A program made the translations under genes and the position numbers. Shown one piece after another: positions 880-18,908 of a DNA stretch of 22,141 nucleotides (positions within the stretch are counted from its first letter, which is position 1; every line of letters starts with the position of its first letter). The DNA comes from Abditibacteriaceae bacterium (GTDB lineage: Bacteria > Armatimonadota > Abditibacteriia > Abditibacteriales > Abditibacteriaceae): positions 1-22,141 of the forward strand of contig JANMKN010000316.1 in assembly GCA_031372065.1 (NCBI GenBank). Reading direction: 5' to 3'. The notes under the pieces are model-generated. The model had not been told where the DNA came from. It worked only from the letters and a program-made list of their open reading frames with translations, and searched no databases.

Positions 880-899
880 CGGAGGAGCAAAGCGGAAAT

Positions 900-2405: not shown

Positions 2406-2435
2406 TAGAAATCAGGGGAATTTGGCAATTGCAGA

Positions 2436-2466
2436 ACCCCATTCCTCCTGCCCAGAGGGATGGGGT
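2436..2466. repeat. Intergenic GC-rich hairpin (REP-like or mRNA-stabilising)
   Basis: ACCCCATTCCTC (2436-2447) pairs with GAGGGATGGGGT (2455-2466): 12-bp stem with one G-T pair and a 7-nt loop, no U-tract. Confidence 0.6.
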
Positions 2467-2498
2467 GCAAGGCCGTTTAGCCTTTCTATCAACTCGTT

Positions 2499-4856
2499 TT
2501 AGTCAACAACTGCTTCTTCGCGCTCTTCGCTTGGTTCTTCAGTTTGCGAGCGGCGCCGCTTGCTTTTGTTGCGTTCGGGCGTCCAGTCGCCGCCATCTTC
2601 GGTGGTTGGCGCGTAGTAGGAATAATACGAGCCATAATAAGCGTCGGGATCGTTGTGCGCCTTCACTTTGTTGAAAATAACGCCCAAAACGCGGCCTCCA
2701 GCGTTGCGCAAAACGCTGTGAGCGCGCTGCACATGACCACGCGCTGTCTGGCTGGCGGCTACTACTAAAATCGCGCCATCCACAAACGAAGCCAACACTT
2801 GTGAATCGGTTAAGAACATCAAAGGCGGGCTGTCAATGACCAGCAAATCGCACTCGTTGCGCAATTCTTCGAGCAATCTTTGTCCGGCGTGGCTGGATAA
2901 AAGTTCCGGCGGATTGGGTGGCAACGTGCCCGACGGCATAACGCGCAGGTTGTCCACCGGCGTCGGACGCAAGGCGTCTTGCAGCGCCACCGAACCGGAT
3001 AACACATCCACAAAACCGGGACGCATCGGCACTTTATTAGTGTCCGAACTGCACAAGCGATGTTGTGTCGGGCGACGCAAATCGCAGTCGAGCAAAATGA
3101 CGCGCTTGCCGTCGTAGGCCATCACGGTAGCAAGGTTGAGCGCGCACATAGATTTACCTTCGCCGGGGTCGGCGCTGGTCACCAAAACGCTGCGTAGCGG
3201 CGCATCCATCATCGAAAAATTCACATTCGAGCGCAAAATGCGGCACGCTTCGAGCAAAGGCCGCGCGGCGGAAAAACGCGCCGTTTCCGCAGGCGATTGC
3301 GGACGCGCCAATTCCGTGGAAACCTTGCCGTCGGCAGTAGTCTGCTTCGAGGGAATGGCAAAGGCCAAACGGCGCTCAGCGTCATCGTTAAACATCGGCA
3401 AACTGCCCAAAACGGGTGAACCGATCAAGCCTTCAAGTTCCTGGGTCGAATGCACGGTGTTATCAATTTGCTCGGCCACAACACCGGCCAGCACCGATAA
3501 AATCAGGCCGCATAAAACCGCCATTAAAATCACGCGCGACCAAGTGCGTCCGGTAACAATGGCATCGGTAGCCGGAACCACCATTTTGGCCGTGCTGACA
3601 TCGGTATTACCCGTAAGCTGTAAAGCGTTATAGCGGTCGACAAGGCTTTTGTAAGTGTTTTCCAGCAAATCGGCTTTGGTGGATAGCTCGTTAAATTTGG
3701 AAGCAATCGGCGGCAAGGAAGCACTTTCACTTTTGGCTTGTGCCAGTTGCGCATTGACTTCTGAAGCTCTTTGGCTAATCTGCGAAAGAAACGCGCGACG
3801 GCGCGTTTCTAATGAGCGTTTTGCGGCTTCCAGCGATTGGCGGGCCGCTTGCGTTTTAATGTCATCGGGCTGATAGCGTGCGGCGATGGCATCATAATTT
3901 TGCTGCGCATCAAAGGCGCGTTTTTCCAGTTCAGGAATCGAAGAATCGGCCATGACTTTATCGCTGGTTAGACCGGCGGATAAATCCAGTTGGGCGGCTT
4001 GCGAATCAATGGTTAGTTGTTGAATGCGCGTATTTAGCGCCGTGACCCGCTCGATAATCGAAGTCACGCCGGTTTTCTGCTGGAATTCCTGCAATTCCTG
4101 CTTGGCTTTTAAGTATTGCCTTTCGGTTTGTTCGACTTGCCTTTTGGCCGAAGCGATGTTTTTCACGCTTTCTTCATCGGCCCACGCGCGCATTTGCAAA
4201 CGATAAACGGTGACCAGATTATTCGCCATGCTTTTGGCGGCGTCAGGGTTGAGCGCGGTGACGGTCACTTCCACTAAATCGGAAGATACAGGGGCCGCGC
4301 CGCGCACGGCTTGCATTGGCACTTTGCCCAAAGGCCAACCTTGTTTTCGCAGCGATTCAGGCACGGTTAGCCATGCCCTTTGCACCAAAGGCTTGCTGGT
4401 TACAATGGCAATCTGCGTTTGCACGTTGGATGAAATATCTGAAGAGCGTGTCTGCGTGATAATATCAGGCATCATGCTCTTGTTTTCTTTGGGCAAAAGC
4501 ATGGTGGCCGTCGCCATATAAGAAGGCTCGCCGGGCCGCAGTTTCCACGCCACAGCCGCCGAAATCAGCAGAAACACGCCGAGCATAATCGGCCAGCGGC
4601 GGCGCAGCATCGCCCAAGCGGTGCTCATATCGAATTGGCGCGCCGCCGGTTTGTCTTCGCCATGACGCCGGTTTTCCTGCGCCAGCACATTCACCAGTTG
4701 ATCCATCAAAAGGCGCGTGCGCGGATCGCTCAGGTTCAAATTAGCGTCGTCAGCCTCGCTTTCATAACGAGCCAACGGCGCGCCGTTTGGCGTGCCATGA
4801 ACGCGCCCGTTTTGCTGTCCGGCACCGTTTTTTTCCGATTCTCCTGCTGGATACAT
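2499..4856 (-). CDS. wzc: Polysaccharide co-polymerase / bacterial tyrosine autokinase (Wzc/GumC-CapB fusion)
   Basis: Two TM segments around a coiled-coil periplasmic region; Walker A (ADPGEGKS), A' (LLDCDLRRP), B (LVIDSPP); C-terminal tyrosine cluster YYGSYYSYY. Start is ATG 4856 or TTG 4871. Confidence 0.92.
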   Translation of the reverse strand: MYPAGESEKNGAGQQNGRVHGTPNGAPLARYESEADDANLNLSDPRTRLLMDQLVNVLAQENRRHGEDKPAARQFDMSTAWAMLRRRWPIMLGVFLLISAAVAWKLRPGEPSYMATATMLLPKENKSMMPDIITQTRSSDISSNVQTQIAIVTSKPLVQRAWLTVPESLRKQGWPLGKVPMQAVRGAAPVSSDLVEVTVTALNPDAAKSMANNLVTVYRLQMRAWADEESVKNIASAKRQVEQTERQYLKAKQELQEFQQKTGVTSIIERVTALNTRIQQLTIDSQAAQLDLSAGLTSDKVMADSSIPELEKRAFDAQQNYDAIAARYQPDDIKTQAARQSLEAAKRSLETRRRAFLSQISQRASEVNAQLAQAKSESASLPPIASKFNELSTKADLLENTYKSLVDRYNALQLTGNTDVSTAKMVVPATDAIVTGRTWSRVILMAVLCGLILSVLAGVVAEQIDNTVHSTQELEGLIGSPVLGSLPMFNDDAERRLAFAIPSKQTTADGKVSTELARPQSPAETARFSAARPLLEACRILRSNVNFSMMDAPLRSVLVTSADPGEGKSMCALNLATVMAYDGKRVILLDCDLRRPTQHRLCSSDTNKVPMRPGFVDVLSGSVALQDALRPTPVDNLRVMPSGTLPPNPPELLSSHAGQRLLEELRNECDLLVIDSPPLMFLTDSQVLASFVDGAILVVAASQTARGHVQRAHSVLRNAGGRVLGVIFNKVKAHNDPDAYYGSYYSYYAPTTEDGGDWTPERNKSKRRRSQTEEPSEEREEAVVD

Positions 4857-4882
4857 ATTTTCTCGCTTCAATCAAACCGTCA

Positions 4883-7042
4883 CTAAAATGAGCGGAACAA
4901 CAAGCCAAGCGGCCCCAAAAAAGACAGAATCGAGCGTGTTTTCGATTCGGTTACTTTTCCCGGATAAACGTAAATCACATCGCCATTCTGCAACTGCTGC
5001 TGCAACTGCTGCGTGTTGTTTACGCCTTTTTTCCCTGTGGGATACGGATTAATGACCAGCACTTCGGGATTATCCGGTTGACCTACACGCGGACGGATTA
5101 ACACAATGTCTTGCGCATTGGTTTGGCGCCCGCCTGCCGCTGTCAAGGCTTCATCCAACTTTAAGGTGCCTTTTTCAGGAATCGGAACAATGCCTGGACG
5201 GTTGACAGCTTCCATAACCGTTACATGATCGGTGTGTTCGGGAATCGTCACCAAATCATGATTCTGCACGGGAAAATTCAAAGGTTTTCCTGATTTCATA
5301 GCATCAAAAACGTCCACCACTTGCATTTTGCCATCGCGCTGCACCACAACGCGCGCTAAGGCCGCTTTGTCTGTAGTGCCACCAGCACGCAGAATGAGTT
5401 CCTGCAAATCCAGATTGTCCGTAAAATCAACCATGCCTGCTTTGACGACTTGGCCGCCGATGTGAGCGATTTTTATTTCTTTTTCTTCCGGCTTCACTTC
5501 GGCGATAGTAATTGCATCGCCCGGCTTCAATTTCACGTTTTGTTCAGGGCTAAGTTCGGACAGTTTGACCGGATCAATGTCCAGATTGATTAATTTGCCA
5601 TTTTCTTCGCGGCGCAGGATGGTGATTTTGGTTTTATCCCATTTCAGACCGGGATTCAAACCGCCCGCATTGATTAGGGCATCCATTAGTCTGCTGTCCA
5701 AAGGCAACTTAGCGGCTTGCGGTTTCGGCACCGTGCCGGCGATTTGCACTTCGATAAAATCAGGTTCTTCGAGTTGCAAAACATCGCCGTCTTGGAGCGG
5801 CACATTTAATTTTTTGTCATTGGGGTTCAATCGCGCCTTGTCCAAATCCAGTGGCGTTTCGATGTTGCGACGCCAAATGGAAGCGCGGATGTCTTTGACA
5901 TCAAATTCCGGTTTCGGGCCGCCCGCTTTGACAATGGCATCCAAAAACTGTGCGCCCGTTGTCATTTGAAATTGGCCGGGCGCTCGCACCAAGCCATCCA
6001 CACGCACCGTTACCGGCGGCACCAAAGTAACATTGATGTAATCACGCGGCTGCAAAACAATGTCGGCAGCAGGATCGGCTTTGCTCAGAGCCTGTTGCAC
6101 ATTCAATTCCAGCGTTTGGTTGTCGCGAAACAAAACGCCTTTGTAATTGTAAGCGCTGTTTTCAATCGGCACCGTGCCCGTCGCGGGCACAGGAATGCTC
6201 AAACCGCCCGCCAACAGCAAAAGCTCCGATAAATGTGGCTTTTCGCTGAGTTCGGGCGCGCCCGGCTGAGGCAAACGGCGCATATAATAAGTGTTTGGCC
6301 GCGTGACGGCGCCCGAAAGAAAAACCGGTTTGGCTTCGTCGGGAATTTCCGAGACCGTAATCACATCGCCGGGCCGCACTTCGATATTCGAAGGCGAATC
6401 CGGTTTCTGCGAAATTGCCACCAAATCAATCGTGCGTAAAGGTTCTCCGGCACGGGCCAAAGTGACTTTGACGCTATCCAAGCGCCCGCTGGCTGGGCCA
6501 CCCGCCACACTTAGCGCTTCAAAAATGCGAAAGCCATCTTTGATTTCAACCGGCCCTTGCGTCTTAACTGCGCCCAGAACTTGCATAAAAACCGCTAATG
6601 GGTCGGCTTCTTCGATAATCGGGCGTGGCTGCGGCACGCTGAGAACCAGTGCATTGGCGAAATTTGGTTTGATGCGCTTAACCAACAAACGACGCAATTC
6701 CCTTTGCACATCTTCTATGGTGCGATTATTGGCCTTGAGGGTGCCATAAAACGGCAGCGCCACGGTGCCGTTGGGTAAAACCGTCATTAAATCCACGCTG
6801 AATTCGGGAAATTCCGGCACGGTGATGCGCAAAACATCGCCCGGCCCTAAAACGTAGCTGCGTTGCCGAAGCGCGGCATCGCGCGCCGCCCGCGCCGCCG
6901 CCGCTTTGGGCGAAATCGGGCGCTGAATGGCGTTTTTAGGCGCTTCGCCAGTAGTTTTCTCGTTGGGCGCGGCAAAACCAGCAACGGAGCAGCAAAGGGG
7001 CAGCAAAAACAAGGGGACAGCAGGAAAACGGCGGTGAATCAT
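4883..7042 (-). CDS. Polysaccharide export protein (OPX/Wza-like) with PES domain and six SLBB repeats
   Basis: Poly_export motif YVLGPGDVLRITV...VLPNGTVALPFYG, six G-x-V..G..L.(D/E)A...AGG units and a C-terminal amphipathic helix. Signal peptide follows MIHRR (ATG 7042; alternative 7063). The ORF-track extension to 7282 is probably non-coding. Confidence 0.88.
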   Translation of the reverse strand: MIHRRFPAVPLFLLPLCCSVAGFAAPNEKTTGEAPKNAIQRPISPKAAAARAARDAALRQRSYVLGPGDVLRITVPEFPEFSVDLMTVLPNGTVALPFYGTLKANNRTIEDVQRELRRLLVKRIKPNFANALVLSVPQPRPIIEEADPLAVFMQVLGAVKTQGPVEIKDGFRIFEALSVAGGPASGRLDSVKVTLARAGEPLRTIDLVAISQKPDSPSNIEVRPGDVITVSEIPDEAKPVFLSGAVTRPNTYYMRRLPQPGAPELSEKPHLSELLLLAGGLSIPVPATGTVPIENSAYNYKGVLFRDNQTLELNVQQALSKADPAADIVLQPRDYINVTLVPPVTVRVDGLVRAPGQFQMTTGAQFLDAIVKAGGPKPEFDVKDIRASIWRRNIETPLDLDKARLNPNDKKLNVPLQDGDVLQLEEPDFIEVQIAGTVPKPQAAKLPLDSRLMDALINAGGLNPGLKWDKTKITILRREENGKLINLDIDPVKLSELSPEQNVKLKPGDAITIAEVKPEEKEIKIAHIGGQVVKAGMVDFTDNLDLQELILRAGGTTDKAALARVVVQRDGKMQVVDVFDAMKSGKPLNFPVQNHDLVTIPEHTDHVTVMEAVNRPGIVPIPEKGTLKLDEALTAAGGRQTNAQDIVLIRPRVGQPDNPEVLVINPYPTGKKGVNNTQQLQQQLQNGDVIYVYPGKVTESKTRSILSFLGPLGLLFRSF

Positions 7043-7063
7043 AGGGTAAGTCCAGAAACTCAT

Positions 7064-7398
7064 GGATTGAATGACGACAATGGCCGTCGGAGTGAGAGCA
7101 ATTCTTTTGAAGTAAAAATACTTTTGGCAAACAACTTCGCAAAACAGTGTTCGCGATGAAATCTTTGCCGCCAATTTAGCCTCATACGCTTGGCGTTTTG
7201 AAAACAATCGCGGGCAACAGAAAAGATTATCATAAAACGGGCTATTTTCCAATAATGGCAGCTTATAACACCATGCGGACACTTAAAACAACATCGCTCA
7301 TGACAAACCGTTGCATGGCTGGTAAAAAATGCAAGGCGCCTAAAAAGCACAACAATCTCAAATGCAGTCAAACTGTATTTGCAAACAAGCTGAACATT
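7064..7398. promoter_or_regulatory. Divergent promoter region between the EPS export operon and the epimerase gene
   Basis: About 335 bp, AT-richer, between divergent start codons; contains four AAACA-N(1-4)-TCGC direct repeats. Confidence 0.5.
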
Positions 7399-8370
7399 AT
7401 GAACATTTTGATAACGGGCGGCGCCGGTTTTATCGGCTCGCATCTGGCGGAACTGCTGCTGCAAGACGCCGACAATCGTCTCACCATCGTTGACAATCTG
7501 GCGACGGGCAAATTCACCAACATCGAACACCTGACGCACGACCCGCGTTACCGCCTCATCGTCGGCAGCGTGACCGATGCTACGCTCCTTGAGCCTCTCA
7601 TCGCGCAAAGCCAGCATATTTATCATCTCGGTGCCGGTGTGGGCGTGCGGCGCATCATCGAACAGCCGGTTGAAACCATTGAAACCAACATTCTCGGCAC
7701 TGAATCGGTTTTGAAACTGGCCGCGAAATATCACAAAAAGGTGCTAATCGCCTCAACCAGCGAGGTTTACGGCAAAAACACTAACACGCCGTTCAACGAA
7801 GAAGACGACAGCGTATTTGGCTCGACCACCAAAAGCCGCTGGAGCTATGCCTGCTCTAAAGCCATTGATGAATTTTTGTCACTCGCTTATCACAAAGAAA
7901 AAGGTCTGCCCGTCGTTATTTGTCGCTTTTTCAATACGGTGGGGCCGCGCCAAACCGGGCGCTATGGTATGGTCATTCCGAATTTAGTGCAGCAAGCTCT
8001 GCGCGGCGAACCGCTCACGGTTTATGGCGACGGCAATCAAACCCGCTGTTTCACGCACATTAAAGATTCAATTCGTTGCCAGCTGGCGCTGATGAACGAT
8101 AAGCGCGCTGTCGGCCAGATTTTCAATTTGGGCAGCAATCACGAGGTTTCCATCAAGCAATTGGCCCAGCGCATTATCGAACTGACTGGCTCGAAATCGA
8201 AAATCATTTTTATTCCTTACGAAGAGGCTTACGAAGCCGGTTTTGAAGATATGCAGCGCCGTGTGCCCGACACCACTAAACTGCGCAACTTCCTCGGTTT
8301 TGCGCCCGAAACTGACCTCGACAGCATCTTGAACGATGTAATTGCCTATTTTCGCTGCACAAAAGCGTAA
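7399..8370 (+). CDS. NAD-dependent epimerase/dehydratase (extended SDR, UDP-glucuronate decarboxylase-like)
   Basis: MNILITGGAGFIGSHL Rossmann motif, STSEVYG, catalytic YACSK, RFFNTVGPRQ, GDGNQTRCF. True start ATG 7399. Confidence 0.9.
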   Translation: MNILITGGAGFIGSHLAELLLQDADNRLTIVDNLATGKFTNIEHLTHDPRYRLIVGSVTDATLLEPLIAQSQHIYHLGAGVGVRRIIEQPVETIETNILGTESVLKLAAKYHKKVLIASTSEVYGKNTNTPFNEEDDSVFGSTTKSRWSYACSKAIDEFLSLAYHKEKGLPVVICRFFNTVGPRQTGRYGMVIPNLVQQALRGEPLTVYGDGNQTRCFTHIKDSIRCQLALMNDKRAVGQIFNLGSNHEVSIKQLAQRIIELTGSKSKIIFIPYEEAYEAGFEDMQRRVPDTTKLRNFLGFAPETDLDSILNDVIAYFRCTKA

Positions 8371-8385
8371 AAGTGGACTAAATCC

Positions 8386-9651
8386 ATGCCCGACACCAAC
8401 ATTTTCGCCCTCACGCGCCGCGATTTTTTGCGCGGCGTGACTGTGGCGGCGGGCGCGGTTTTAGCCGGATGCCACAAAGAAAACGTGAGCGGCGCCAAAG
8501 TGACGCTCACGCAGTGGTATCACCAATACGGCGAAGAAGGCACGCACGATGCCGTGATGCGCTATGCGCTGCAATACACCAAAGCCTTTCCTGATGTTGC
8601 CATTCGCGTCCAATGGGTGCCGGGCGACTATCAAACCAAACTCAACACCGCGCTTTTAGTCGCCGGCGGCCCCGATGTTTTTGAAAAGCAGCTTGCTATT
8701 CCGATGGTGACAGCGGGCCAAGTTGAGCCGCTGGATGATCTTTACACGCCCGAAGTGCGCCGCGATTTTCTGGACAAGGATTTGGCGCTCAATCGCGTGA
8801 ACGGCAAAATTTACGGCATCAAAATGGTCGGCGATACCGGCGTTTTGTATTTTCGCAAAAGCCTTTTACAACAAGCCGGTTTAACGGTGCCGAAAACCTT
8901 CGATGAACTTGCCACAGCCGCAAAAAAACTGACGATAAAAGACCGCAAAGGCTTGTTTTTGGGCAACGATGGCGGCGTGGGCGCGCTTTTGCAAATTTTG
9001 CCGTGGTCGGCGGGCAGCGATTTTTTGGTGGATAACAAAATCGTTTTTAACAACGAGCGCACCGCCCACTCCTACGAAAAACTGCGCGATTTACAAAAGA
9101 CTGGCGCGCTTCTTATCGGCGCGCCGACGGATTGGTGGGACCCGTCCGCCTTCACGCAAGGCCTGTGCGCGATGGCATGGGGCGGCTTGTGGGCCTTTCC
9201 CGCCATCAAAAAGGCGCTCGGCGACGATGTTGGCGGCATCGCGTGGCCCGCATTAGATCAAAAAGGCGCGCCCGCCACATTTTCCGGCGGCTGGTCGCAA
9301 ATGGTCAATGCGCGTAGCCCATATTTAGACGAAGCGAAAAAATATATCAAGTGGCTGTGGATTGCCAATAAAAAGATTCAGGAAGACTGGAATTTAAGTT
9401 ACGGTTTTCACGTCCCGCCGCGCCAGAGCGTCGCGCAAACAGCCCAAGCCTTAAACGATCCGGTTGCCGCTTTAGCCGTGAAAAACGTCAAAGAATTCGG
9501 GCGCCCTACCCCTCCCGCATGGACGGCCAGCATGAACACCGCATTAAGCGACGCCGCGACAAATATCGTCAAGCAAAACCGCGATGCCGCTGCGGAATTG
9601 GCCGTCGCCGAGAAAAAATGCAATCGCGTTTTAGAACGCTTGCTGCGCTAA
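8386..9651 (+). CDS. ABC-type carbohydrate-binding lipoprotein with Tat signal
   Basis: TRRDFL twin-arginine motif, lipobox LAGC, SBP family 1 motifs (GGPDVF, LYFRKSLLQQAG..VPKTFDEL). Confidence 0.88.
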   Translation: MPDTNIFALTRRDFLRGVTVAAGAVLAGCHKENVSGAKVTLTQWYHQYGEEGTHDAVMRYALQYTKAFPDVAIRVQWVPGDYQTKLNTALLVAGGPDVFEKQLAIPMVTAGQVEPLDDLYTPEVRRDFLDKDLALNRVNGKIYGIKMVGDTGVLYFRKSLLQQAGLTVPKTFDELATAAKKLTIKDRKGLFLGNDGGVGALLQILPWSAGSDFLVDNKIVFNNERTAHSYEKLRDLQKTGALLIGAPTDWWDPSAFTQGLCAMAWGGLWAFPAIKKALGDDVGGIAWPALDQKGAPATFSGGWSQMVNARSPYLDEAKKYIKWLWIANKKIQEDWNLSYGFHVPPRQSVAQTAQALNDPVAALAVKNVKEFGRPTPPAWTASMNTALSDAATNIVKQNRDAAAELAVAEKKCNRVLERLLR

Positions 9652-9669
9652 AACCAAGCGTTTTTATTT
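9635..9669 (+). terminator. Possible intrinsic terminator at the convergent SBP/phosphoesterase junction
   Basis: AACGCTTG (9635-9642) pairs with CAAGCGTT (9655-9662), followed by TTTATTT; overlaps the SBP stop codon. Confidence 0.4.
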
Positions 9670-10611
9670 CTGAATGAACTTGATGCCGGTAAGAGAAAAC
9701 TTCGATTTGTCGTCTCTGATTTTGTCATAAAACGGCGAATAAACGCGCGCCTCAATGGTGCCTGCTGCCGTATCAATATCGAGCAAGCGAATGTAACCGC
9801 CGCCCGCATCTTCGCCTTGATAATCCTGCAAAACCTGATAAATAATGTTGCCGTTTTCGCCGATGTCGGTGCGATACGCCGAGGTATCAACGTGACCGCT
9901 GAGAACCAGCAACACATTGGCGTGTTTTTTTATCATCTGGTCGAAAATAGATTGACTGGTCAGGTTTCCATAACCAGCGTTCGTCTGATTGATTTCGCCT
10001 TTGGACGTGAGATGAAAATGCGTCAGTATGATGACATTGTGCTTGGGAAACTGCGTCAGCACTTGGTTGGCCCAATCCACCGGCCCCTGACGCGCGCAAA
10101 ATTCCAGCGTCAGAACCAGCCAATCCAAGCCGCCGGCCTCGAAGGTGTAATAGGCGTTATCGCTTTTGCCTTCTTCACAACGCCCTTTTTGCGCCGAAAA
10201 ACGCGCCACGGGGAAATAGGAATTGAACTTTTCGGTGTTGCGCAAATTGAGGTTGACATTGCCCGGCGCCGCGCTGCCGCTGTTTTCGCCGACAGCCGCC
10301 GTATCGTGATTGCCGACAGCTAAGGCATAGGGAATTTTCGCTTCGTCCAGCACTTTGAAGGCTTCGCTGGCCGTTGTCCATTGCTTGTCGTTGTGAAAGT
10401 CCACAATATCGCCGACATGAAGCACCATCGGCATTTTCAAGGGCACCGCGTTTTTGACCAGCCAATCCAATTGACTGTGCAACATTTCCGGCTTACGATT
10501 GACTTCCACCTGCGTATCCGGCAAAACCGGCAAGGTAAACGGCTCGGCAAAACACGGCGCGCAAAAAAACAAAACAACGGCGATTAAACAGTGGATAAAG
10601 AACTTTTTCAT
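9664..10611 (-). CDS. Secreted calcineurin-like metallophosphoesterase
   Basis: Sec signal peptide (MKKFF...CFA), motifs LPDTQ, VGDIVD, GNHD, LTH, LSGH. Confidence 0.88.
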   Translation of the reverse strand: MKKFFIHCLIAVVLFFCAPCFAEPFTLPVLPDTQVEVNRKPEMLHSQLDWLVKNAVPLKMPMVLHVGDIVDFHNDKQWTTASEAFKVLDEAKIPYALAVGNHDTAAVGENSGSAAPGNVNLNLRNTEKFNSYFPVARFSAQKGRCEEGKSDNAYYTFEAGGLDWLVLTLEFCARQGPVDWANQVLTQFPKHNVIILTHFHLTSKGEINQTNAGYGNLTSQSIFDQMIKKHANVLLVLSGHVDTSAYRTDIGENGNIIYQVLQDYQGEDAGGGYIRLLDIDTAAGTIEARVYSPFYDKIRDDKSKFSLTGIKFIQK

Positions 10612-11495
10612 CAGACATCACCAGCTTTCTTTGTCAAAGATTTACGGCCTGTTCTCATTGTAGCGATATACCGAGTCAATGAAGGCAATTCAAGATATGA
10701 ATTGGTTAGGTGATTTAATAAATCACAGTAGAGAACCCCAAGATGATTCCCTGCGAATGATCCTGTTTCCGTGCCTACGCAGGGAGAGAAATACCAATCG
10801 TAATTCTCTCCCTGCTCATCCTCCGGGCAACGAACAAATCCTAATCCGCGCTCATCAAATCTGGCATAAGAAATCACGCCAGACGTGAGCAACGTAGTCA
10901 TGTTTGGCAGAAAAGATTTGTTCCGATTCAAGTAGAACGGTGCAATATCTTCAAATTTGAAATCGCCTGCATCCACGCATAATATAAAAGAGAATATTCT
11001 GTTTAAAATGCGATTCTCCTTTTGAAGATATATATCCCGCAACAAAGTTTCATCTGAAATTTCACTCCCATAGGCGGTATTTATAATATCCTCATGAAAA
11101 AGCCGCGTGCGGATGTCTTGAATTGTCTGGCTAAAACCCTCAATATATTTCTTGGATTTATAGTATGTAGATTTGATTTCACCTATCGCGTAAACCGAAT
11201 CAATAGGAATGTATTCTGTGCCGTCCTTAGTAGTTAGAAGAGAAGGCAGATTGAAATTATCCGCAATTATAATATCAAGTTGCGGGCTAACCTCACCACT
11301 TATATCAATCAAATGCCCATGAGTGACATAATATCTTGGTGGGAGCATACGCTTGAAGTAATCTCGAACGCACATTTCTACATCATTGCCTGCGGCACGT
11401 ATATCGGTTCCGTGAACCATGATAGCGTTCTGACGCACCCTTAAAATATCGTCGGCATCTAATTTAAATATTGCGGGGATGTCAAGTTTTTTCAT
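10611..11495 (-). CDS. NucC-like (DUF6602) PD-(D/E)xK endonuclease, AT-rich
   Basis: G-x3-E...LPPRY...G.LID..G..SPQLDIIIAD...PIDSVYAIGEIKS matches the NucC/DUF6602 core, with a D-x31-EIK catalytic motif. Three hand-counted 60-nt lines are 28-42% GC, versus 47% and 72% for two lines of the neighbouring gene. Confidence 0.75.
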   Translation of the reverse strand: MKKLDIPAIFKLDADDILRVRQNAIMVHGTDIRAAGNDVEMCVRDYFKRMLPPRYYVTHGHLIDISGEVSPQLDIIIADNFNLPSLLTTKDGTEYIPIDSVYAIGEIKSTYYKSKKYIEGFSQTIQDIRTRLFHEDIINTAYGSEISDETLLRDIYLQKENRILNRIFSFILCVDAGDFKFEDIAPFYLNRNKSFLPNMTTLLTSGVISYARFDERGLGFVRCPEDEQGENYDWYFSPCVGTETGSFAGNHLGVLYCDLLNHLTNSYLELPSLTRYIATMRTGRKSLTKKAGDV

Positions 11496-11526
11496 AGAGA
11501 TTCACGCTGCTAATTTCGCACATTAC

Positions 11527-11555
11527 ATAATAGCACGCAAGACGAGCGTTTTCCA
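11527..11555 (-). promoter_or_regulatory. Candidate sigma70-type promoter for the NucC-like gene
   Basis: The minus strand reads TGGAAA-N17-TATTAT with an extended -10 TG (TGcTATTAT), about 30 bp upstream of ATG 11495. Confidence 0.4.
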
Positions 11556-11563
11556 CTTCCACG

Positions 11564-11935
11564 TCATCGCTGTGCCAATTGCTCTGCCGTTGTTACAATG
11601 GATTCGACCACAGCATCCAATTGACGATAAATTTGCTTGTTCGAGAATCTCAAAAAGCAGATACCGTAACTTTCGATGAATGCCTGACGATTGGCATCAT
11701 AGGCGGCAGCTTCATCGCCTTCATGTGTTGGGCCGTCAATTTCGAGGGCCAGTTTTAACTGCGGACAGTAGAAATCCAAAACGTAAGGGCCGACTGAATA
11801 TTGTTGGCGAAATTTCCAGCCGCCGACCTGTCCGGCGCGCAATCGTTGCCAGAGCAACACTTCCGCTTTTGTTCGCTCGCGGCGCAACGCCTGACGCTTT
11901 TCTTTTTGTTCAGGACGATTGTAGATTTTCGTCAT
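11564..11935 (-). CDS. DUF559 / very-short-patch-repair-like endonuclease
   Basis: LRRERTKAEVLLWQRLR...KFRQQYSVGPYVLDFYCPQLKLALEIDGPTH...D..RQAFIESYGICFLRFSN is the typical DUF559 signature. Confidence 0.92.
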   Translation of the reverse strand: MTKIYNRPEQKEKRQALRRERTKAEVLLWQRLRAGQVGGWKFRQQYSVGPYVLDFYCPQLKLALEIDGPTHEGDEAAAYDANRQAFIESYGICFLRFSNKQIYRQLDAVVESIVTTAEQLAQR

Positions 11936-11937
11936 TT

Positions 11938-12070
11938 AACCCCCAACCCCCTTGGTAAGGGGGCTAAATTATTACTTGGTTAAAACAAGCAAACTCGTCT
12001 GAAACTCAAATGCATTTTAACTATGCAGAAGCGTTCTACCATAGCCCCCTTACCAAGGGGGTTGGGGGTT
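11938..12070. repeat. Inverted pair of identical 29-bp REP-like palindromic units around a 75-bp spacer
   Basis: AACCCCCAACCCCCTTGGTAAGGGGGCTA (11938-11966) and its exact reverse complement (12042-12070). Each unit has an internal CCCCCTT-N3-AAGGGGG hairpin. Confidence 0.92.
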
Positions 12071-12071
12071 C

Positions 12072-13949
12072 CTACTTCCAACTCATCGCCGCGCCCAAGT
12101 AATAACCGAGGTGCGGCGGCTGGTTGTAGGCGACGTTTTGCCATGCGATGCCCAGGCGATAAATTGGGTCGTGCATGAAAGTGGGAAAACGATAATTGGT
12201 GGGAATTGTCGTCGAAAAGATGCGCAATTCTTTGTTGTCGCGCGTGCGCCAGATGACTTCTTCGCGCCAGTCGCCCAAAATGTCCGCCGATAAAACCGGA
12301 TTGGCCTTGGTGCTGTTATTCGAGGCGCAATCGAAATCTTGCGCCGCCAGCAGCGTATTGGTTTTCTTGTTTTCCCAATCCCATTTGCTAACCGTTGTGC
12401 CGTCCAGAAGTTCACTCAACAAATCGCCGTCCCAATAGATGCCCATATTCACCGAAGGCGTGGCATCGGCGATTTGGTTGCCTTTGCAATCCCACATTTT
12501 TCGGCCAAGGCCCGCGCCCGCCGCCCAGCATTCAAAGCCGGGATAGCGCGGATCAATATCCAAAGCAAGGCCGCGCCCCGGCCCTTCGCCTTTGTCACCG
12601 CCGGTTGTGGCTGCCATCAGCGAGGCTTTTTTCCAGAGAATTTCGCCGGTTTTGGCATCGAACATATGCGCGCCCGCATCATCGAAGCGCTCTTGAATGC
12701 GAAACACTTCCAGGCCCGGATGCGTCGGGTCAAGGTCGGAAAAATGCAGGGCGTCGCCGTGACCAAGGCCGGTAGAATACAATCCCTTGCCATTGTCGTC
12801 AATCGCCATGCCGCCATAGATGATTTCATCTTTGCCGTCGCCGTCCACATCGCCCACACTCAGATTATGATTGCCCTGTCCGGCGAATTTCTCGTTGCCT
12901 TTGTCATTGGAATCGAAGACCCAACGCGAGGTAAGTTTTTTATCGCGCCAGTCCCACGCCGCCAAAACAGTGCGCGTGTAGTAACCGCGACACATGACAA
13001 CGCTGGGATGCACGCCATCAAGATAAGCAATGCACGCCAAAAAGCGATCTACGCGGTTGCCATAGTTATCGCCCCACGTTTTTTTCAATTGGTCGCCGCT
13101 GGGATTCTCGGTTTCGGGATGGCGCGCCGGAATGTATTTTGTGGTCGCCAAAGCCGCGCCGGACAAGCCATCGAACACGGTTAAATATTCCGGCCCGCTC
13201 AGAATGCGTCCGTCTTGATTCACATAATTCGCCTTGGCATCGCCGATGACTTTGCCTCGGCCATCAACCGTTCCATCGGCAGTTTTGCAGACCACTTCGG
13301 CGCGGCCATCGCCATCCAAATCGTAAACCATAAACTGCGTGTAATGCGCGCCTTCACGGATGTTTTTGCCCAGATTGATTGTCCACAGCAGCGTGCCGTC
13401 AAGTTTGTAGCCTTGCAAAATCGGCGGGTCGGTTTCGCCGTTTTGCGAGTTGTCTTTGCCTCGCCCGGCCTGATGCAAAACAATGTCATATTCGCCATCG
13501 CCATCCAAATCAGCCGCCGAGCCATCATTGGGCGCGTAACCGTCGGGAGTTTGCAACGGCACACTGAGATAAGGCCGCGCCGGAGCATTTTCGGGCAAAG
13601 TAAACGCGCGACTTTGTTCGGTTTCCTGACCGTTCACAATGGGCCGCACGAAATACGAAACGGCGCCTTGCGGCACGTTTTTATCGAGAAAATTTGTGCC
13701 GCCCGCAATGGCTTGCACGTTCAATTTTTGTGTCGCGCCGCCTGCCGTCCGATACAAATTAAAAGCAATATCGCGCGGGTCGGTGCCCGTCATGCGCCAA
13801 CTGATAAAAGCGCTGCCATCCGCTTGTTTGAGCGCAAAGACGCCGCGCCCCAACGCTTCCATTTGGCGCGCGTGAACAAGCGGCGCTTTTTCGTTGCAAT
13901 GACAGTTTTCAGCTTGCGCGAATAGCAAACCAGCGAGTGTAAAAAGCAA
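12072..13949 (-). CDS. Rhamnogalacturonan lyase, family PL11 (YesW/YesX-like)
   Basis: RQMEALGRGV, ISWR, repeated Ca-binding DLDGDG loops, NIREGAHYTQFMVYD, RGYYTR, GQGNHNLSVGDVDGDG, GDWREE, WQNVAYNQPPH. Probable start TTG 13949 with AAGGA 9 nt upstream; start uncertain. Confidence 0.93.
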   Translation of the reverse strand: MLFTLAGLLFAQAENCHCNEKAPLVHARQMEALGRGVFALKQADGSAFISWRMTGTDPRDIAFNLYRTAGGATQKLNVQAIAGGTNFLDKNVPQGAVSYFVRPIVNGQETEQSRAFTLPENAPARPYLSVPLQTPDGYAPNDGSAADLDGDGEYDIVLHQAGRGKDNSQNGETDPPILQGYKLDGTLLWTINLGKNIREGAHYTQFMVYDLDGDGRAEVVCKTADGTVDGRGKVIGDAKANYVNQDGRILSGPEYLTVFDGLSGAALATTKYIPARHPETENPSGDQLKKTWGDNYGNRVDRFLACIAYLDGVHPSVVMCRGYYTRTVLAAWDWRDKKLTSRWVFDSNDKGNEKFAGQGNHNLSVGDVDGDGKDEIIYGGMAIDDNGKGLYSTGLGHGDALHFSDLDPTHPGLEVFRIQERFDDAGAHMFDAKTGEILWKKASLMAATTGGDKGEGPGRGLALDIDPRYPGFECWAAGAGLGRKMWDCKGNQIADATPSVNMGIYWDGDLLSELLDGTTVSKWDWENKKTNTLLAAQDFDCASNNSTKANPVLSADILGDWREEVIWRTRDNKELRIFSTTIPTNYRFPTFMHDPIYRLGIAWQNVAYNQPPHLGYYLGAAMSWK

Positions 13950-13951
13950 AA

Positions 13952-16762
13952 TTAAATGTCCTTTTTCATCAGCGGCACCAATTGCACCGGGCCGAGCAAA
14001 CCCGAAGGCAGTGGCTCCCATTGCGAGGCATCGAAGGGCTTGTAATCAATGTTGACAAAGAAAAACGGATGCCAGTCCACTTTGCGCCGGTCTAAATCGG
14101 CCAAGCGATTCGCCATTAAATTGGTGACTTCAATTTCCAGCGTGTTGTCGTTTTGCAGCAATGCGTTTTCAAAGCTCACGCGCCACGGACGCGAAATCAC
14201 CGTTCCCAAATCGTGGCCGTTCAATTTCACCCGCGCGCTGTAACAAACCTCGCCGAGATGGATTTCCCACGCGTCAGCTTTGGCAATAGGCCGCGCAAAG
14301 TGAATTGCATAGCGCGCCGTGCCGGAAAAGGCACGCAAGTCTCCATTATCTTGCGGCCATTTTGTCCAATCGGAAAGCGTATTTATGTCGCGCACGAGCG
14401 GCAAATTCGGGCCGCCTTCAATAAATTCCACGCGCCACTTTTGGTTTAAAGGCAAGTGCGCCGGAGACGCCGCGAAAGTGCCGAAAGCGGGTGATTCGAT
14501 TTTTTGCGGCGCGGCGCGAATAATCAAAGATTCACCGACTTCTAATTGCACATAAATTTGCGTTTTGCCGTTTTGCGTTTGTGTCGGCAAGGCGCCGGTT
14601 TTTCCCGTCATTGCATCAAAACCAAGCGCACTTTTTATATTTTGTGGCACGGCAAAATCGAGCCATTTATCAACACGAGCCTTACCGAGATTCACCACGA
14701 AATAAATCCAGTTTTCGCCGTTTTTGCGCCGAATCCATTCAAGACCGTCATCGGTCAAGGTTTCGCGCTGCACTTTAGTCGCAGAAAGCATTTCTTCGAG
14801 ATCGGCGCCGACGAAAAACGCGCCTTTGCCAAGAGCGTGACGAGCAAAATCTTCTTTGGCTTTCTTATCCAATAAACCGTTTTTAATTTCTTGAATAAGA
14901 GATTGAAACTTCGCGCGGCGCACTGGTAAATCACTCAGTCCCGGCACGTCTTGCGGCAAATTATCAACGCATAAAATCGTCGCGCCGTTGCGGGCCAATT
15001 GCGCTAATTTTTCCAATGTTTCAACAGGCATTAAACGGCTATTTGGCACCACGATGGTTTTGTAACTCGCGCCCGTCGTTTGTAAGCTGCCATTGAATTG
15101 CACGCTTTGCAATTGCGCGTCGGAAATGCTGTCGAAACTGTAGCCGCGATTCCACATCTGCAACTGCGTTTTGGCATAACCGGCCATGCCTTTGTTCATC
15201 CAATCCGAGGCATTATGCACTGTCATAAATTGCAAATTATCGCGGCTGCCAGCATCGCGCGACCACAAATCATAAATCGGCAAATACAGCAGAATATCGT
15301 TGTCTGGTTGGCCTCTTTGCAAAAACGATTGGCAGCGCGCGATGTAATGATTTAACGCGGGAACATCGCGCCAAAACGTGTTAGTCGGCGCCATGTGCGT
15401 GGTCGCATAAAACATCCAGCCGGGCCATGGAATATCTTTTGGAGAGAGCGGCGTGCCGTGAAAAAAGATATGATTGACGCCCGCTGTCAATAGCAAATCT
15501 ACTTCGGCCTTGCCGTGTTCGAGGGGCACTTTGCCATGTTCGCCGAGCCATGTAAACGATTCGCTGGAACACAACTTTTTGCCCGCGACGTGTGCCGCCG
15601 AAGACGCCAATTTGCAGACGAAAAGTTCTTCGGTCAAATCGCCTTGCTGCGGCGTGCCGGGCAACGGTTTAAGTCCGGCCATTTCGATAAACGAAGTGCG
15701 AAAAACTTCGGTTTCGGGCACGTCCGTCGCGGCGTATAAATCAAGAATATTACCCGGCGAACCATGCGCCTGATTGCGCGTTTTGGCGCCCTTGGCGTTG
15801 GCCCATTTCGTCCATTGCTGCGTAAAATCTCCCAACAAAAGTTCATGCACGGTTTGGCGATAATCGCTGCGCACGCGCGAAATTATTTCTTTGTCGCCTT
15901 CGCCATTTAAAGCAGGCAAATGAGCGCGCAAATCATAGCCGCGCCGCGCCGCAAATTCGCGCCACAAATCGCTTGTCCAGTTGGCGCCGAAAACTTCATA
16001 CGAATCATTGAAAAAACAGCGTGGCAAATCGTCGTTTAATTCTTTCAAAGGCGCGTCGAAATGCCGCAAATAACGCTGCACGGCGGGCGCCGAAAGATGA
16101 TCCAACACGTTGCCATCGCCACCCGGCCCGGCGCGTTTTACTTGCTGTCCGCTGCCGATTAAAAACGCGCCTTCTAACTTCCAATCGCCTGCGGGCGCGT
16201 CCCACTTTAAAGTGCCATCGGCGCTGACTTTATCGGTTAAATCCAGAATTTTCTCGCCCGAATACGCCATCAACACGCTCAATTTTGCTTTGGGTTTGTC
16301 TTTGCTGCGAATAGGTTCGCCGACTTTTAAAATTTGCAAATACAATTTGAGCGGCGCGTCTTCCGCAGGCACCCACAAGCCGCCCAGCGGCCAGCCGGTG
16401 CCGGTTATCATGTCCACGCCCATATCAAGGCGCTTGCCTTCGCGCACCGTATAGCCGAGCATTTTCATCCACGCGTCGCTGAGATACGGAACGTTGCGGT
16501 TTTCGTAGCCCGGCACGGCATAAATGGGGCTGACTTCAACGCCGCCCATGCCGGCCTCGTGAAAGGCTTGTAAATGGCGCGTGATTTCAGCTTGGGTGAC
16601 AGCACTGCCGAGCCACCACCAGCGCGTCCACGGGCGATTTTCTTTGGTAAGTTGAGGCCAATCGGTCATATTATTTTGGGTTTGCGCCAAGCACGGCGCG
16701 GCGAGGCAGAGCAAGATTGCCAAAGCGTAAAACGGTTTGCGAAACAGTGCGGTGAAAGCCAT
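13952..16762 (-). CDS. Glycoside hydrolase family 106 (alpha-L-rhamnosidase), secreted
   Basis: Signal peptide, RPWTRWWWLGSAV, GMGGVE, FFNDSYE, NQAHGSP, PETE, KLASSAAH, C-terminal FSGTARY / NTLEIEVTN / SGLLGPV. Start ATG 16762. Confidence 0.85.
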   Translation of the reverse strand: MAFTALFRKPFYALAILLCLAAPCLAQTQNNMTDWPQLTKENRPWTRWWWLGSAVTQAEITRHLQAFHEAGMGGVEVSPIYAVPGYENRNVPYLSDAWMKMLGYTVREGKRLDMGVDMITGTGWPLGGLWVPAEDAPLKLYLQILKVGEPIRSKDKPKAKLSVLMAYSGEKILDLTDKVSADGTLKWDAPAGDWKLEGAFLIGSGQQVKRAGPGGDGNVLDHLSAPAVQRYLRHFDAPLKELNDDLPRCFFNDSYEVFGANWTSDLWREFAARRGYDLRAHLPALNGEGDKEIISRVRSDYRQTVHELLLGDFTQQWTKWANAKGAKTRNQAHGSPGNILDLYAATDVPETEVFRTSFIEMAGLKPLPGTPQQGDLTEELFVCKLASSAAHVAGKKLCSSESFTWLGEHGKVPLEHGKAEVDLLLTAGVNHIFFHGTPLSPKDIPWPGWMFYATTHMAPTNTFWRDVPALNHYIARCQSFLQRGQPDNDILLYLPIYDLWSRDAGSRDNLQFMTVHNASDWMNKGMAGYAKTQLQMWNRGYSFDSISDAQLQSVQFNGSLQTTGASYKTIVVPNSRLMPVETLEKLAQLARNGATILCVDNLPQDVPGLSDLPVRRAKFQSLIQEIKNGLLDKKAKEDFARHALGKGAFFVGADLEEMLSATKVQRETLTDDGLEWIRRKNGENWIYFVVNLGKARVDKWLDFAVPQNIKSALGFDAMTGKTGALPTQTQNGKTQIYVQLEVGESLIIRAAPQKIESPAFGTFAASPAHLPLNQKWRVEFIEGGPNLPLVRDINTLSDWTKWPQDNGDLRAFSGTARYAIHFARPIAKADAWEIHLGEVCYSARVKLNGHDLGTVISRPWRVSFENALLQNDNTLEIEVTNLMANRLADLDRRKVDWHPFFFVNIDYKPFDASQWEPLPSGLLGPVQLVPLMKKDI

Positions 16763-16770
16763 TATGTTTT

Positions 16771-17853
16771 TCAAACCGACTTCACGCTTTGGCGATGCAC
16801 TAATTCGCCTTTGGTGATGATGGTGCGCGGCGGCTCGGTGCTGCCTTCGAGCCGCGCGTTGAGCAATTCCACAACAGCGCCGATAGTTTGCTGCACCGGT
16901 TGCGAAATGCAAGTTAGCGGCACCGGGCAATATTCGGCGATGGGTTGGTCATCGTGCCCAATAATGCTGACATCATCCGGCACGCGCAGAGACGCGCGCA
17001 TGATTTGCGTCATGAAGGCCAGCGCCACATAATCATTGACGATGCATAATCCGCTGGGCCGTTTTTTGAGCGCTAAAAACTGCTTTGCCAACGCGCCGCC
17101 GCCCACTTCGTAAGGCGGGTTTTCGAATAACCATTCGGTGCGAAACGGCACCTTATATTCTTCAAGCGCCCTTTTAAAACCTTGCACGCGCAAATCTTGT
17201 GGCACATTGACTCGGCTTTGCCAATCGGTGGGCAGCGAAATGCTCAGGCCCAAATCGCGGTGCCCATGTTCCAGCAAATAGCGCGCGGCTTGATAAGCGT
17301 TGTCTTCGCGGTCAAACACAACTTGATCGCAATTAAGGGGCAACGCGATGTCGTAAGTCACGACAATTCCACCGCTTTTCTGATAATTTTCCAAAGCGCC
17401 CAAAACAGCTTTATCCACCATTTGCGCGGCGCAGATAATGGCGCGCGGGCGTTGCAGACAAAGCTGGCGCAATTCTTGGGCTTGCGCGGCGCCATCGAAG
17501 ATATTCGCTTCGCCGCTGGTATAAATCGGCACCTCTAATTTCAAGCGATTGAGGTGCCTTTGCAACAGCAGAATCTTCTCGGTGGCAAGGCCCACATCTA
17601 ACACGCCACTGAAAATATAAACCACATTATTGTTGGCGCCAAAAGCCAAGCGCTGCGCCAAAGGATTGGGCGAGTAGCCCATTTCGCGCGCTTTGGCTTC
17701 CACAACTATCCGCGTTTTTTCGGCGATGTTACCACGCCCCGAAAGTGCCAACGAAATAGTGGATTTATGCATTCCCAATTCATCGGCGACATCTTGAATG
17801 GTAATAGGACGCAGCGTTGTTTTTTGTTCGTTTTTACGCGTTGATTTTGTCAT
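16771..17853 (-). CDS. LacI-family transcriptional regulator
   Basis: N-terminal HTH ITIQDVADELGMHKSTISLALSG...MGYSPN..AQRL, and sugar-binding domain (NDYVA, VPDDVSIIGHDD, LTCISQP). Confidence 0.93.
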   Translation of the reverse strand: MTKSTRKNEQKTTLRPITIQDVADELGMHKSTISLALSGRGNIAEKTRIVVEAKAREMGYSPNPLAQRLAFGANNNVVYIFSGVLDVGLATEKILLLQRHLNRLKLEVPIYTSGEANIFDGAAQAQELRQLCLQRPRAIICAAQMVDKAVLGALENYQKSGGIVVTYDIALPLNCDQVVFDREDNAYQAARYLLEHGHRDLGLSISLPTDWQSRVNVPQDLRVQGFKRALEEYKVPFRTEWLFENPPYEVGGGALAKQFLALKKRPSGLCIVNDYVALAFMTQIMRASLRVPDDVSIIGHDDQPIAEYCPVPLTCISQPVQQTIGAVVELLNARLEGSTEPPRTIITKGELVHRQSVKSV

Positions 17854-17873
17854 GTTTCCCTAAGTTTTCGGGC

Positions 17874-18908
17874 CTATTGTTGCCACTTCTTGCGCCACGA
17901 CTCATAATCTGAAAACAATTTCACCGGCCAGTTGCCATACCAAGCATAGCCATTGCGGCGCTCGTAAGAAATATCAGCCAGATTTTTTCGAGGCACGCCA
18001 TCACGGCTCACGAAAAAGGGTTCATTCGTTTGAATATCATAAAAACGCGCCCACAAAGGCGGCGTGTTCGGGTCAGGCACGACAACCGAATCGTAACCTT
18101 TTTCAGCAGTTTTGTCGTCACGCTTTTCGATTTTAATGCCGGTTAATTTCGCTTTCTCGAACCACGCCATCGCCGCTGCAATGGCGGTTTGAATTTCGGG
18201 AGAAGGCTGGTCAAGACTCATCAAAAGGCGCGTAATGCCCGCCGATTCGCTGCCGCTGAGTGACACCAATTCAAAAGCGCGCGCCGAGCGCGGTTCCAAG
18301 GTTTTTTCGTCGTGCTGCGCGCACCAAACCGTAAGAACACCCTTGACTTTTATTTGGCATTTGAGAATGCAATTGATGCCACTGTCGAACGCTATTTGCG
18401 CTTTGGCACGCCGCTCTTTGTCAACGAAATCATACAGCGGCTGCGTCGCAATTTCGCGCAAAATCTCCATCAAATTCACCATCGTGTTGTCATTGAAGGT
18501 AATGTAGCGCGGATAATCTTGGCGCGGCGGAAATGATTGCGGCCAGCCGCCGGTTGGATATTGCGCGGCCAAAATATGATCGAGCGCTTTGAAAAAGGCC
18601 GCTCGATATTTTGGGTCTTGCGTCGCCTCAAACATTCGCGCTAAAAAGCGCATTTCGTTGATCGTCGCACCGTTGTCGAAAGTGCCATGTAAATCTGTGG
18701 CGACCCCTTTATAGGGCAGAGTGGTATCGCCGTTTTTGGGCCAGTCGCCAAAAGACGATTGTTGCGATAAAACATTCGCGGCCAGAGTTTTGGCCTCGTC
18801 GCCTTGAAACCACGCCATAGGTTTTTTCAGCAAAGACCGCACATCGGCTTTTGCCACCAAAGCAAAGAAAACGGCACATGACAGCAAAAGAAGCGCTTTG
18901 ACTTTCAT
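17874..18908 (-). CDS. pelA: Pectate lyase, family PL10 (PelA-type), secreted
   Basis: Signal peptide; GDWPKN, TFDNGAT, AQYPTGGWPQ, ITFNDNTM, WCAQHD, ARAFEL.SLSGSES, WARFY, ERRNGYAWY. Confidence 0.92.
   Translation of the reverse strand: MKVKALLLLSCAVFFALVAKADVRSLLKKPMAWFQGDEAKTLAANVLSQQSSFGDWPKNGDTTLPYKGVATDLHGTFDNGATINEMRFLARMFEATQDPKYRAAFFKALDHILAAQYPTGGWPQSFPPRQDYPRYITFNDNTMVNLMEILREIATQPLYDFVDKERRAKAQIAFDSGINCILKCQIKVKGVLTVWCAQHDEKTLEPRSARAFELVSLSGSESAGITRLLMSLDQPSPEIQTAIAAAMAWFEKAKLTGIKIEKRDDKTAEKGYDSVVVPDPNTPPLWARFYDIQTNEPFFVSRDGVPRKNLADISYERRNGYAWYGNWPVKLFSDYESWRKKWQQ

Follow-up and report, generated by a model that had tools for sequence, protein, structure and literature searches.

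A stand-alone, probably acquired DUF6602 gene of an Abditibacteriaceae bacterium, predicted to encode a trimeric nuclease with the NucC fold

NucC is known as a second-messenger (cA3) effector of CBASS and type III CRISPR systems (10.1101/694703; 10.1101/2022.06.20.496707). The account of the E. coli enzyme places its active site at D73, E104 and K106 and describes cA3 as held by R53, Y81 and T226, a single mutation of any of these three residues abolishing activation by cA3 (10.1101/694703); the same three contacts are described for Serratia NucC (10.1101/2022.06.20.496707). Damona, meanwhile, is presented as a single-gene anti-phage integron cassette that encodes a DUF6602 protein with matches to Cas PD_DExK and CBASS endonuclease models (10.1101/2024.07.02.601686). 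The accessible part of that preprint relates Damona to RmuC, gives no mechanism and does not name PADLOC as the source of the two models. In PANGU systems, YejK-like proteins released by genome degradation are described as activating the effectors; ten clusters are reported, two of them unnamed hypothetical proteins, and the accessible part of the account names no NucC or DUF6602 effector (10.64898/2026.04.06.716658). The YejK domain is also listed as newly validated in defence (PMC13092281). Judging by titles and abstract openings, the literature searched contained no account of stand-alone NucC-fold nucleases, and DUF6602 was met in the Damona preprint (10.1101/2024.07.02.601686) alone, most subscription journals lying outside the search.

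We analysed a window of 22,141 nucleotides (contig JANMKN010000316.1, the whole stretch) from a bacterium of the family Abditibacteriaceae. An earlier note on this DNA had singled out a 294-aa AT-rich gene with NucC-like motifs, and the reading frame was borne out at 10611-11495 on the minus strand. Its GC content is 40.3% against 53.2% for the genome, and its GC3 is 38.6% against a genome median of 59.4%; GC as low as this occurs in just 0.2% of 3100 long reading frames. The gene and its elements are the following.

10611..11495, minus strand: DUF6602 / NucC-fold endonuclease gene, protein P0001, 294 aa (Pfam, PADLOC, predicted structure)
11172..11378, minus strand: catalytic core codons, E40 ... 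D74-x31-E106-I-K108 (conservation in 118 distant representatives)
10995..11102, minus strand: gate-loop-equivalent region, about residues 132-167 (model and alignments)
10614..10652, minus strand: C-terminal arm, residues 282-294, extending past where NucC stops (predicted model)
11527..11555, minus strand: candidate sigma-70-type promoter with extended -10 (consensus match only)

The reading frame is a real gene, since it has 355 homologues among 904 candidates, with identity up to 68% over the full length, and matches Pfam DUF6602 (E 1e-18). All of the motifs quoted for it are present in the 294-aa protein, with LPPRY at residues 51-55, SPQLD at 70-74, PIDSVYAIGEIK at 97-108, LGVLYCDLLNHL at 252-263 and PSLTRY at 271-276. 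The PADLOC models for a Cas-associated PD_DExK nuclease and two for NucC matched residues 2-142 only; in true NucCs the NucC models match over the full length, with E values no higher than 1e-66. NCBIfam assigned no family to the protein, and a search of the ESM Atlas returned DUF6602 clusters only. A search for fusions that scored 7999 candidates between 589 and 2000 aa in length found none at E 1e-8; as evidence this is weak, lengths of 515-588 aa lying outside the search. Pfam showed DUF6602 alone in 14 longer representatives. Two homologues, P0170 and P0198, are extended at the N-terminus by about 125-130 residues that match nothing in Pfam.

The proposal that the gene has its own promoter stood in part. 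The candidate (TGGAAA-17-TATTAT with TG, 11555-11527) agrees with the consensus at 9 of 12 positions, lies 31 nt upstream of the ATG within the acquired segment described below, and is plausible as a promoter; it falls short of proof, with ten promoter-like sites in 1.8 kb against 3.9 +/- 2.1 in shuffled sequences.

The protein is predicted to be a trimeric DNase with a full-length NucC fold. An AlphaFold2 model built from 119 homologues (pLDDT 93.8) matched NucC 6p7p over the whole chain in VIA, with Z 21.9 and rmsd 4.0 over 237 aligned residues, and the next non-NucC row of the comparison stood at Z 9.9; Foldseek gave E 4e-15 and TM 0.65/0.77 for the same likeness. The model displays the restriction-endonuclease fold together with the NucC-specific embellishments along the entire chain. 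The NucC-like active site that had been proposed, D74-x31-E106-I-K108, of the PD-(D/E)xK type, is intact and conserved, as E40 (97%), D74 (100%), E106 (99%) and K108 (94%) are retained across 118 distant representatives, in which H28, G36, R44, G60 and H61 are likewise 94-100% conserved. The alpha0 helix and linker, which in NucC order the active site, are strongly conserved as well (R21, H28, I32, G36, E40, R44).

Prediction as a homotrimer scored 0.47 against 0.00 for the best control. This lies above the mark, which in a calibration on two copies 20 of 30 solved pairs attained and 1 of 23 single chains did, but likeness to the solved NucC trimers may have driven the score. Contact agreement between trimer runs was at least 83%, and partner pLDDT at least 81. 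Among the residues at the predicted interface are 52-54, 80-85 and 270-294, the counterparts of pocket elements of NucC in the alignment, and the C-terminal arm (282-294) is predicted to pair with strand 233-238 of the adjacent subunit. The protein had also been thought longer than NucC, with extra sequence after the core. The greater length holds (294 against about 241-250 aa), but the extension is not C-terminal only: some 50 additional residues are shared out among the gate-loop region, a beta-hairpin region and the C-terminal arm, and in the model they are local additions and not an added domain. The gate-loop-equivalent region is longer than that of NucC and contains an extra predicted helix; it is conserved within the close subfamily and variable across the DUF6602 family to which the protein belongs.

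The pocket gave a different picture. R53, Y81 and T226 are all kept in 6 of 6 control NucCs that were fetched. Their equivalents here are R54, N82 (for Y81) and Y267 or L268 (for T226, where the C-terminal register against NucC is uncertain by one residue), and two of the three cA3 contacts, Y81 and T226, are thus absent. F81 adjoins the Y81-equivalent position. No contact is conserved family-wide: in the 118 distant representatives R54 is present in 25%, no residue exceeds 14% at positions 81-82, the commonest residues at 267-268 do not include Thr, and 267 is variable. The close subfamily (the 119 closest homologues) displays a pocket and gate of its own, with N139 at 100%, T140 at 95%, S266 at 99% and L268 at 98%, and an altered nucleotide pocket may persist in this protein. 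For the gate-loop latch of NucC, H136/Y141, the alignment is not decisive, the corresponding region being longer and variable here and Serratia NucC differing too.

The search for partners agreed with the earlier observation that no CD-NTase, Cap or Cas gene is present in the window, as none appeared among the 12 proteins scanned with Pfam and the 3 scanned with PADLOC. For the capsule-type genes at 145-7282, coverage came from the genome-wide searches. The organism's own assembly (94% complete, 410 contigs) had no match to SMODS, CBASS_cyclase_a, CBASS_cyclase_b or two Cas10 models, with controls matched for each. A custom cyclase profile of 15 sequences, whose positive control was one of those same 15, found nothing in 839 + 468 open reading frames of the loci or in the own genome. 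PF21654 matched no genome, positive controls included, so its blank is uninformative.

Beside the homologues, PADLOC gave 0 cyclase or Cas matches. For the 67 genome loci this covered the 235 neighbours that lie no more than two genes away, and for the metagenome loci it covered 142 of 161 neighbours, the other 19 belonging to redundant loci or being two type I R-M genes that had fallen into clusters with known ones; control genes adjoining true NucC were detected by the same tool. No CD-NTase or Cas10 was thus found beside about 150 homologous loci, a neighbour test limited by the presence of a 3 kb flank on both sides in just 55 of 148 loci. Among the best 50 of 70 homologue genomes, 38 were without both SMODS and Cas10, and 12 in total had a match (SMODS in 11, Cas10-like beyond the HD domain in 3); among chromosome-level homologue assemblies, 7 of 11 were without both. 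These counts are to be read with a SMODS model that covers some cyclases, not all, and with many searched genomes being incomplete. The flanking DUF559 and metallophosphoesterase genes were considered as partners and rejected, as both persist in relatives without the nuclease. A TIR gene as a fixed partner was likewise rejected, being found at about 3 of 123 non-redundant loci. The TIR genes in question adjoin homologues at L148 (2602-3786), L150, L059 (1460-2671) and L172 (6869-7840), about three independent loci since L148 and L150 form one 90% cluster, and one of these genes is fused to Mrr. The own genome holds 7 TIR_2 matches.

The homologues occur in diverse contexts. In raw counts, clear PADLOC defence neighbours lie within two genes at 14 of the 67 genome loci and are absent at 53. 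Three homologues (L054, L053, L005) are single-gene cassettes bounded by attC-like repeats. Four others lie between hsdS and hsdR of type I R-M loci (L007 7989-8879, L014 7989-8879, L017 7995-8903, L167 6001-6858), and several more adjoin type II R-M or GmrSD-like genes. The HsdS proteins of L007 and L017 carry a minimal nucleotidyltransferase as a fusion, with substrate-binding genes adjacent. No relative of the nuclease was found in IMG/VR viral contigs or a phage collection, and plasmids gave just 3 weak N-terminal DUF6602 matches. In a different setting, L091/L120 (G221:C1 103145-106903), a canonical NucC lies beside a short 249-aa cyclase with weak attC-like matches flanking, and the pair looks like a two-gene CBASS within an integron array; about 4 kb from this NucC there is another, unrelated DUF6602 cassette.

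The surroundings of the gene allowed its history to be addressed by comparison with a same-genus genome, and the relevant features are listed here.

10612..11572, no strand assigned: 961-bp segment, where a same-genus genome has 95 bp instead, L086 8980-9074 (comparison with relative)
11564..11935, minus strand: DUF559 gene, upstream flank (Pfam; present in a relative without the nuclease)
9664..10611, minus strand: metallophosphoesterase gene, downstream flank (Pfam; present in relatives without the nuclease)

In the same-genus genome, the lyase, DUF559 and metallophosphoesterase genes are adjacent and 82-87% identical to those of the window, and the nuclease is lacking; the 95 bp comprised the final codons of DUF559 and a single copy of a repeat. 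The nuclease was not found in 40 relatives, except for one distant 28% match from another clade, and its closest named homologues belong to other lineages, Chloroflexota and Acidobacteriota, at 58-64% identity. Of the 87 loci with sufficient flanking sequence, 82 have a lower GC content in the gene than in the DNA around it. From the absence in relatives, the empty site, the foreign closest homologues and the low GC we infer gain rather than loss, and the gene was probably acquired horizontally, as the earlier note had supposed. Both junctions are bridged by contigs of a second study, the 3' one in a related strain and the 5' one by a separate contig; the arrangement is therefore no assembly artefact.

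Several further observations concern this region. In run X4, compared over 10230-10797 of the window, the related strain differs at 33 of 382 positions in the metallophosphoesterase and at 3-4 of 186 in the 3' end of the nuclease (Fisher p 0.003; one contig, depth 4.5), a contrast that hints that strains have recently exchanged the inserted gene. Ahead of the DUF559 gene, a GC-rich repeat of 29-31 bp occurs as an inverted pair (11938-11968, 12042-12070); the relative carries a third copy, downstream, and the repeat recurs as pairs at C23 and C200 and also at C11 and C311. The DUF559 gene and these repeats possibly form a small mobile unit or a recombination hotspot. The metallophosphoesterase has an N-terminus that looks, by eye, like a signal peptide. 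The wider surroundings (145-9651 and 12072-18908) include a capsule-type cluster recognised by eye, a sugar epimerase, a binding protein and pectin-use genes, which Pfam identifies as a PL11 lyase, a GH106, a LacI regulator and a pectate lyase. The window copy thus lies among polysaccharide-use genes, outside any defence island. A same-family genome (L073/L087, G023:C101) carries a stand-alone DUF6602 of the Damona-side clade.

Based on these findings, we postulate that the gene belongs to a clade of stand-alone NucC-fold nucleases, a distinct sister clade likely to act against phages. For the protein itself, we give an even chance to a stand-alone, probably acquired trimeric DNase that serves cyclase-free phage defence and answers to a cue other than cA3. 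The trimer would rest in an inactive state, as NucC does. The regulatory switch is probably kept, because R21, H28, I32, G36, E40 and R44 of the alpha0 helix and linker are so strongly conserved, and the face formed by pocket and gate loop probably senses infection directly, through a phage product or some other cue, because this face varies between subfamilies. Activation would pair the active sites, DNA would be cut with little specificity, and the degradation of DNA in the infected cell would lead to abortive infection. A single-gene defence nuclease with a different trigger, one of two readings offered by the earlier note, fits the evidence and has a published precedent in Damona.

A restriction-type enzyme without an allosteric trigger, cutting modified bases or exposed ends selectively in a type IV-like manner, is the alternative that survives best, and we hold it to be unlikely. 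The nearest folds after NucC in the structure comparison of the model are type II restriction enzymes; the four loci between hsdS and hsdR occupy a slot that is described as used by the modification-dependent TgvAB (PMC12409362), and other homologues lie beside type II R-M or GmrSD-like genes. Yet the type I loci in the tree all belong to one subclade and may stem from one event, no modified-base reader domain or fusion was recognised (Pfam on the protein and representatives; fusion search), and the trimer elements and regulatory linker of NucC are kept.

It is distinctly improbable, in our judgement, that another small-molecule signal, for example one made by a TIR protein or borne by the infection, binds a remodelled three-fold pocket. 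The conserved pocket and gate residues of the close subfamily would suit such a signal, as would the TIR genes beside L148/L150, L059 and L172 and the TIR_2 matches of the own genome; the scarcity of TIR neighbours, the movement of single-gene cassettes alone between phyla and the want of family-wide conservation at the pocket positions speak against it. A little less probable again is that this is no working defence gene but selfish or neutral cargo, an anti-plasmid nuclease or a gene with some other role. Its housekeeping-like surroundings, the lack of a conserved partner in most loci and the scarcity of relatives in viral, phage and plasmid collections would agree with this, but the catalytic residues are intact and conserved across phyla, the related strain of the second study shows the gene in the same position and little changed, and the sister clade Damona is reported to be anti-phage (10.1101/2024.07.02.601686).

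Least probable of all, and very much so, is the other reading of the earlier note, in which the protein is an orphan NucC and a CBASS or type III CRISPR system encoded at another locus supplies the cA3 that activates it in trans. Some room is left for it by the complete NucC fold, by R54 with F81 close by, by the matches to SMODS or Cas10 in 12 of 50 homologue genomes and by a 94% complete assembly in 410 contigs from which a cyclase locus could be missing. But the equivalents of Y81 and T226 are lost, either of which is indispensable for activation of E. coli NucC by cA3, and the searches found no cyclase or Cas10 in the organism's own genome, beside any homologue or in most homologue genomes, 7 of 11 chromosome-level ones included.

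A stand-alone nuclease of this kind has implications beyond the locus. A clade that is widespread, has retained NucC's fold and catalytic residues and is found without the cA3 contacts or a cyclase offers a route to ask how such a nuclease is held off and switched on in the absence of a messenger, and it would supply a mechanism for Damona-type defences, which the published accounts, in their accessible parts, leave open. Annotation tools will label such genes as orphan CBASS effectors or Cas-associated nucleases, and these labels are probably wrong. Single-gene DUF6602 defence is already published with Damona, which limits the surprise.

Damona itself is the nearest functional precedent. VC_A0399 (P0354) is a DUF6602 protein whose number stands on the list of 16 active cassettes in the preprint (10.1101/2024.07.02.601686), and we infer that it is Damona; that Damona is among five systems lost in one deletion (PMC12409362) is compatible with this identity. 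P0352 is identical to P0354 over 262 residues. Our protein shares with Damona the single-gene form, DUF6602 and the matches to Cas-associated PD_DExK and CBASS endonuclease models, and a model of the Damona clade is NucC-shaped too. In pairwise comparison with P0352, identity is 30% (27 of 89 residues, about one third of the length, E 5e-7). The published rule for Damona homologues is a blastp query coverage of at least 50% and E below 1e-5 in RefSeq (10.1101/2024.07.02.601686); with an alignment of 89 aa the protein falls outside it, a result that depends on the identity of VC_A0399. At the level of profiles, the Damona clade aligns with our family over 246 columns (E 9e-21), and NucC over just 140. 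A quick tree, unrooted, with long branches and no order of events claimed, separates our family (62 rows, support 94) from the Damona group (96) and NucC (95). Damona is an integron cassette, whereas the window copy is not, because the stop codon of the nuclease gene overlaps the ATG of the next gene, the metallophosphoesterase, and leaves no room for attC; the homologues L053, L054 and L005 are cassettes. DUF6602 occurs in 30 of 285 genomes of the genus Vibrio, many copies lying between attC-like repeats, and stand-alone forms are therefore common.

The comparison with PANGU concerns a subclade. An NA37/YejK-like gene lies directly 3' of the homologue in 12 loci (L051, L057, L058, L061, L063-L067, L219, L224, L225), mostly in Bacteroidota, and the seven such pairs in the quick tree form one Bacteroidota clade. 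R21 is missing in 10 of 10 aligned NA37-paired members and kept in 120 of 125 others; as the paired members are kin, this counts as one event. The subclade has the PANGU layout of a YejK-like protein and an effector and is a candidate for an undescribed PANGU type, and it suggests that the NucC fold can be wired to a non-nucleotide input. The window copy has no such partner, and the own genome gave no match to NA37 (the control matched in E. coli), so that PANGU-like pairing does not explain it. Compared with TgvAB, which is described as embedded in type I loci (PMC12409362), the four homologous loci between hsdS and hsdR share the slot; TgvAB is GmrSD-like (DUF262/DUF1524) and modification-dependent, with no homology to our protein.

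The last comparison is with NucC. The protein shares the whole-length fold of the solved structures (PDB 6p7p, 6q1h, 6uxf, 7zgv) in its predicted model, the H..G..E linker motif before helix 1 and the active site, D74-x31-E106-I-K108 here and D73-x30-E104-A-K106 in NucC, at 15-19% identity in structural alignments. The homotrimer is solved for NucC and predicted for our protein. NucC forms a cA3-induced hexamer, cleaves DNA upon cA3 activation and is encoded with a CD-NTase or type III CRISPR; here no cyclase, HORMA/TRIP13 or Cas neighbour was found, Y81 and T226 are lost, and the R53 equivalent is not conserved in the family. We regard as possible, though doubtful, a broader scheme in which the NucC trimer is a general allosteric DNase chassis with cA3 reading as one branch, most DUF6602 proteins (our clade and Damona included) are messenger-free sensor-nucleases that recognise phage or host proteins directly at the pocket and gate face, and one clade has been rewired to a YejK-like genome-integrity sensor as an undescribed PANGU type. 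As to membership, the protein is likened to NucC at the fold and the catalytic site, and is set apart from it by its pocket and its operon.
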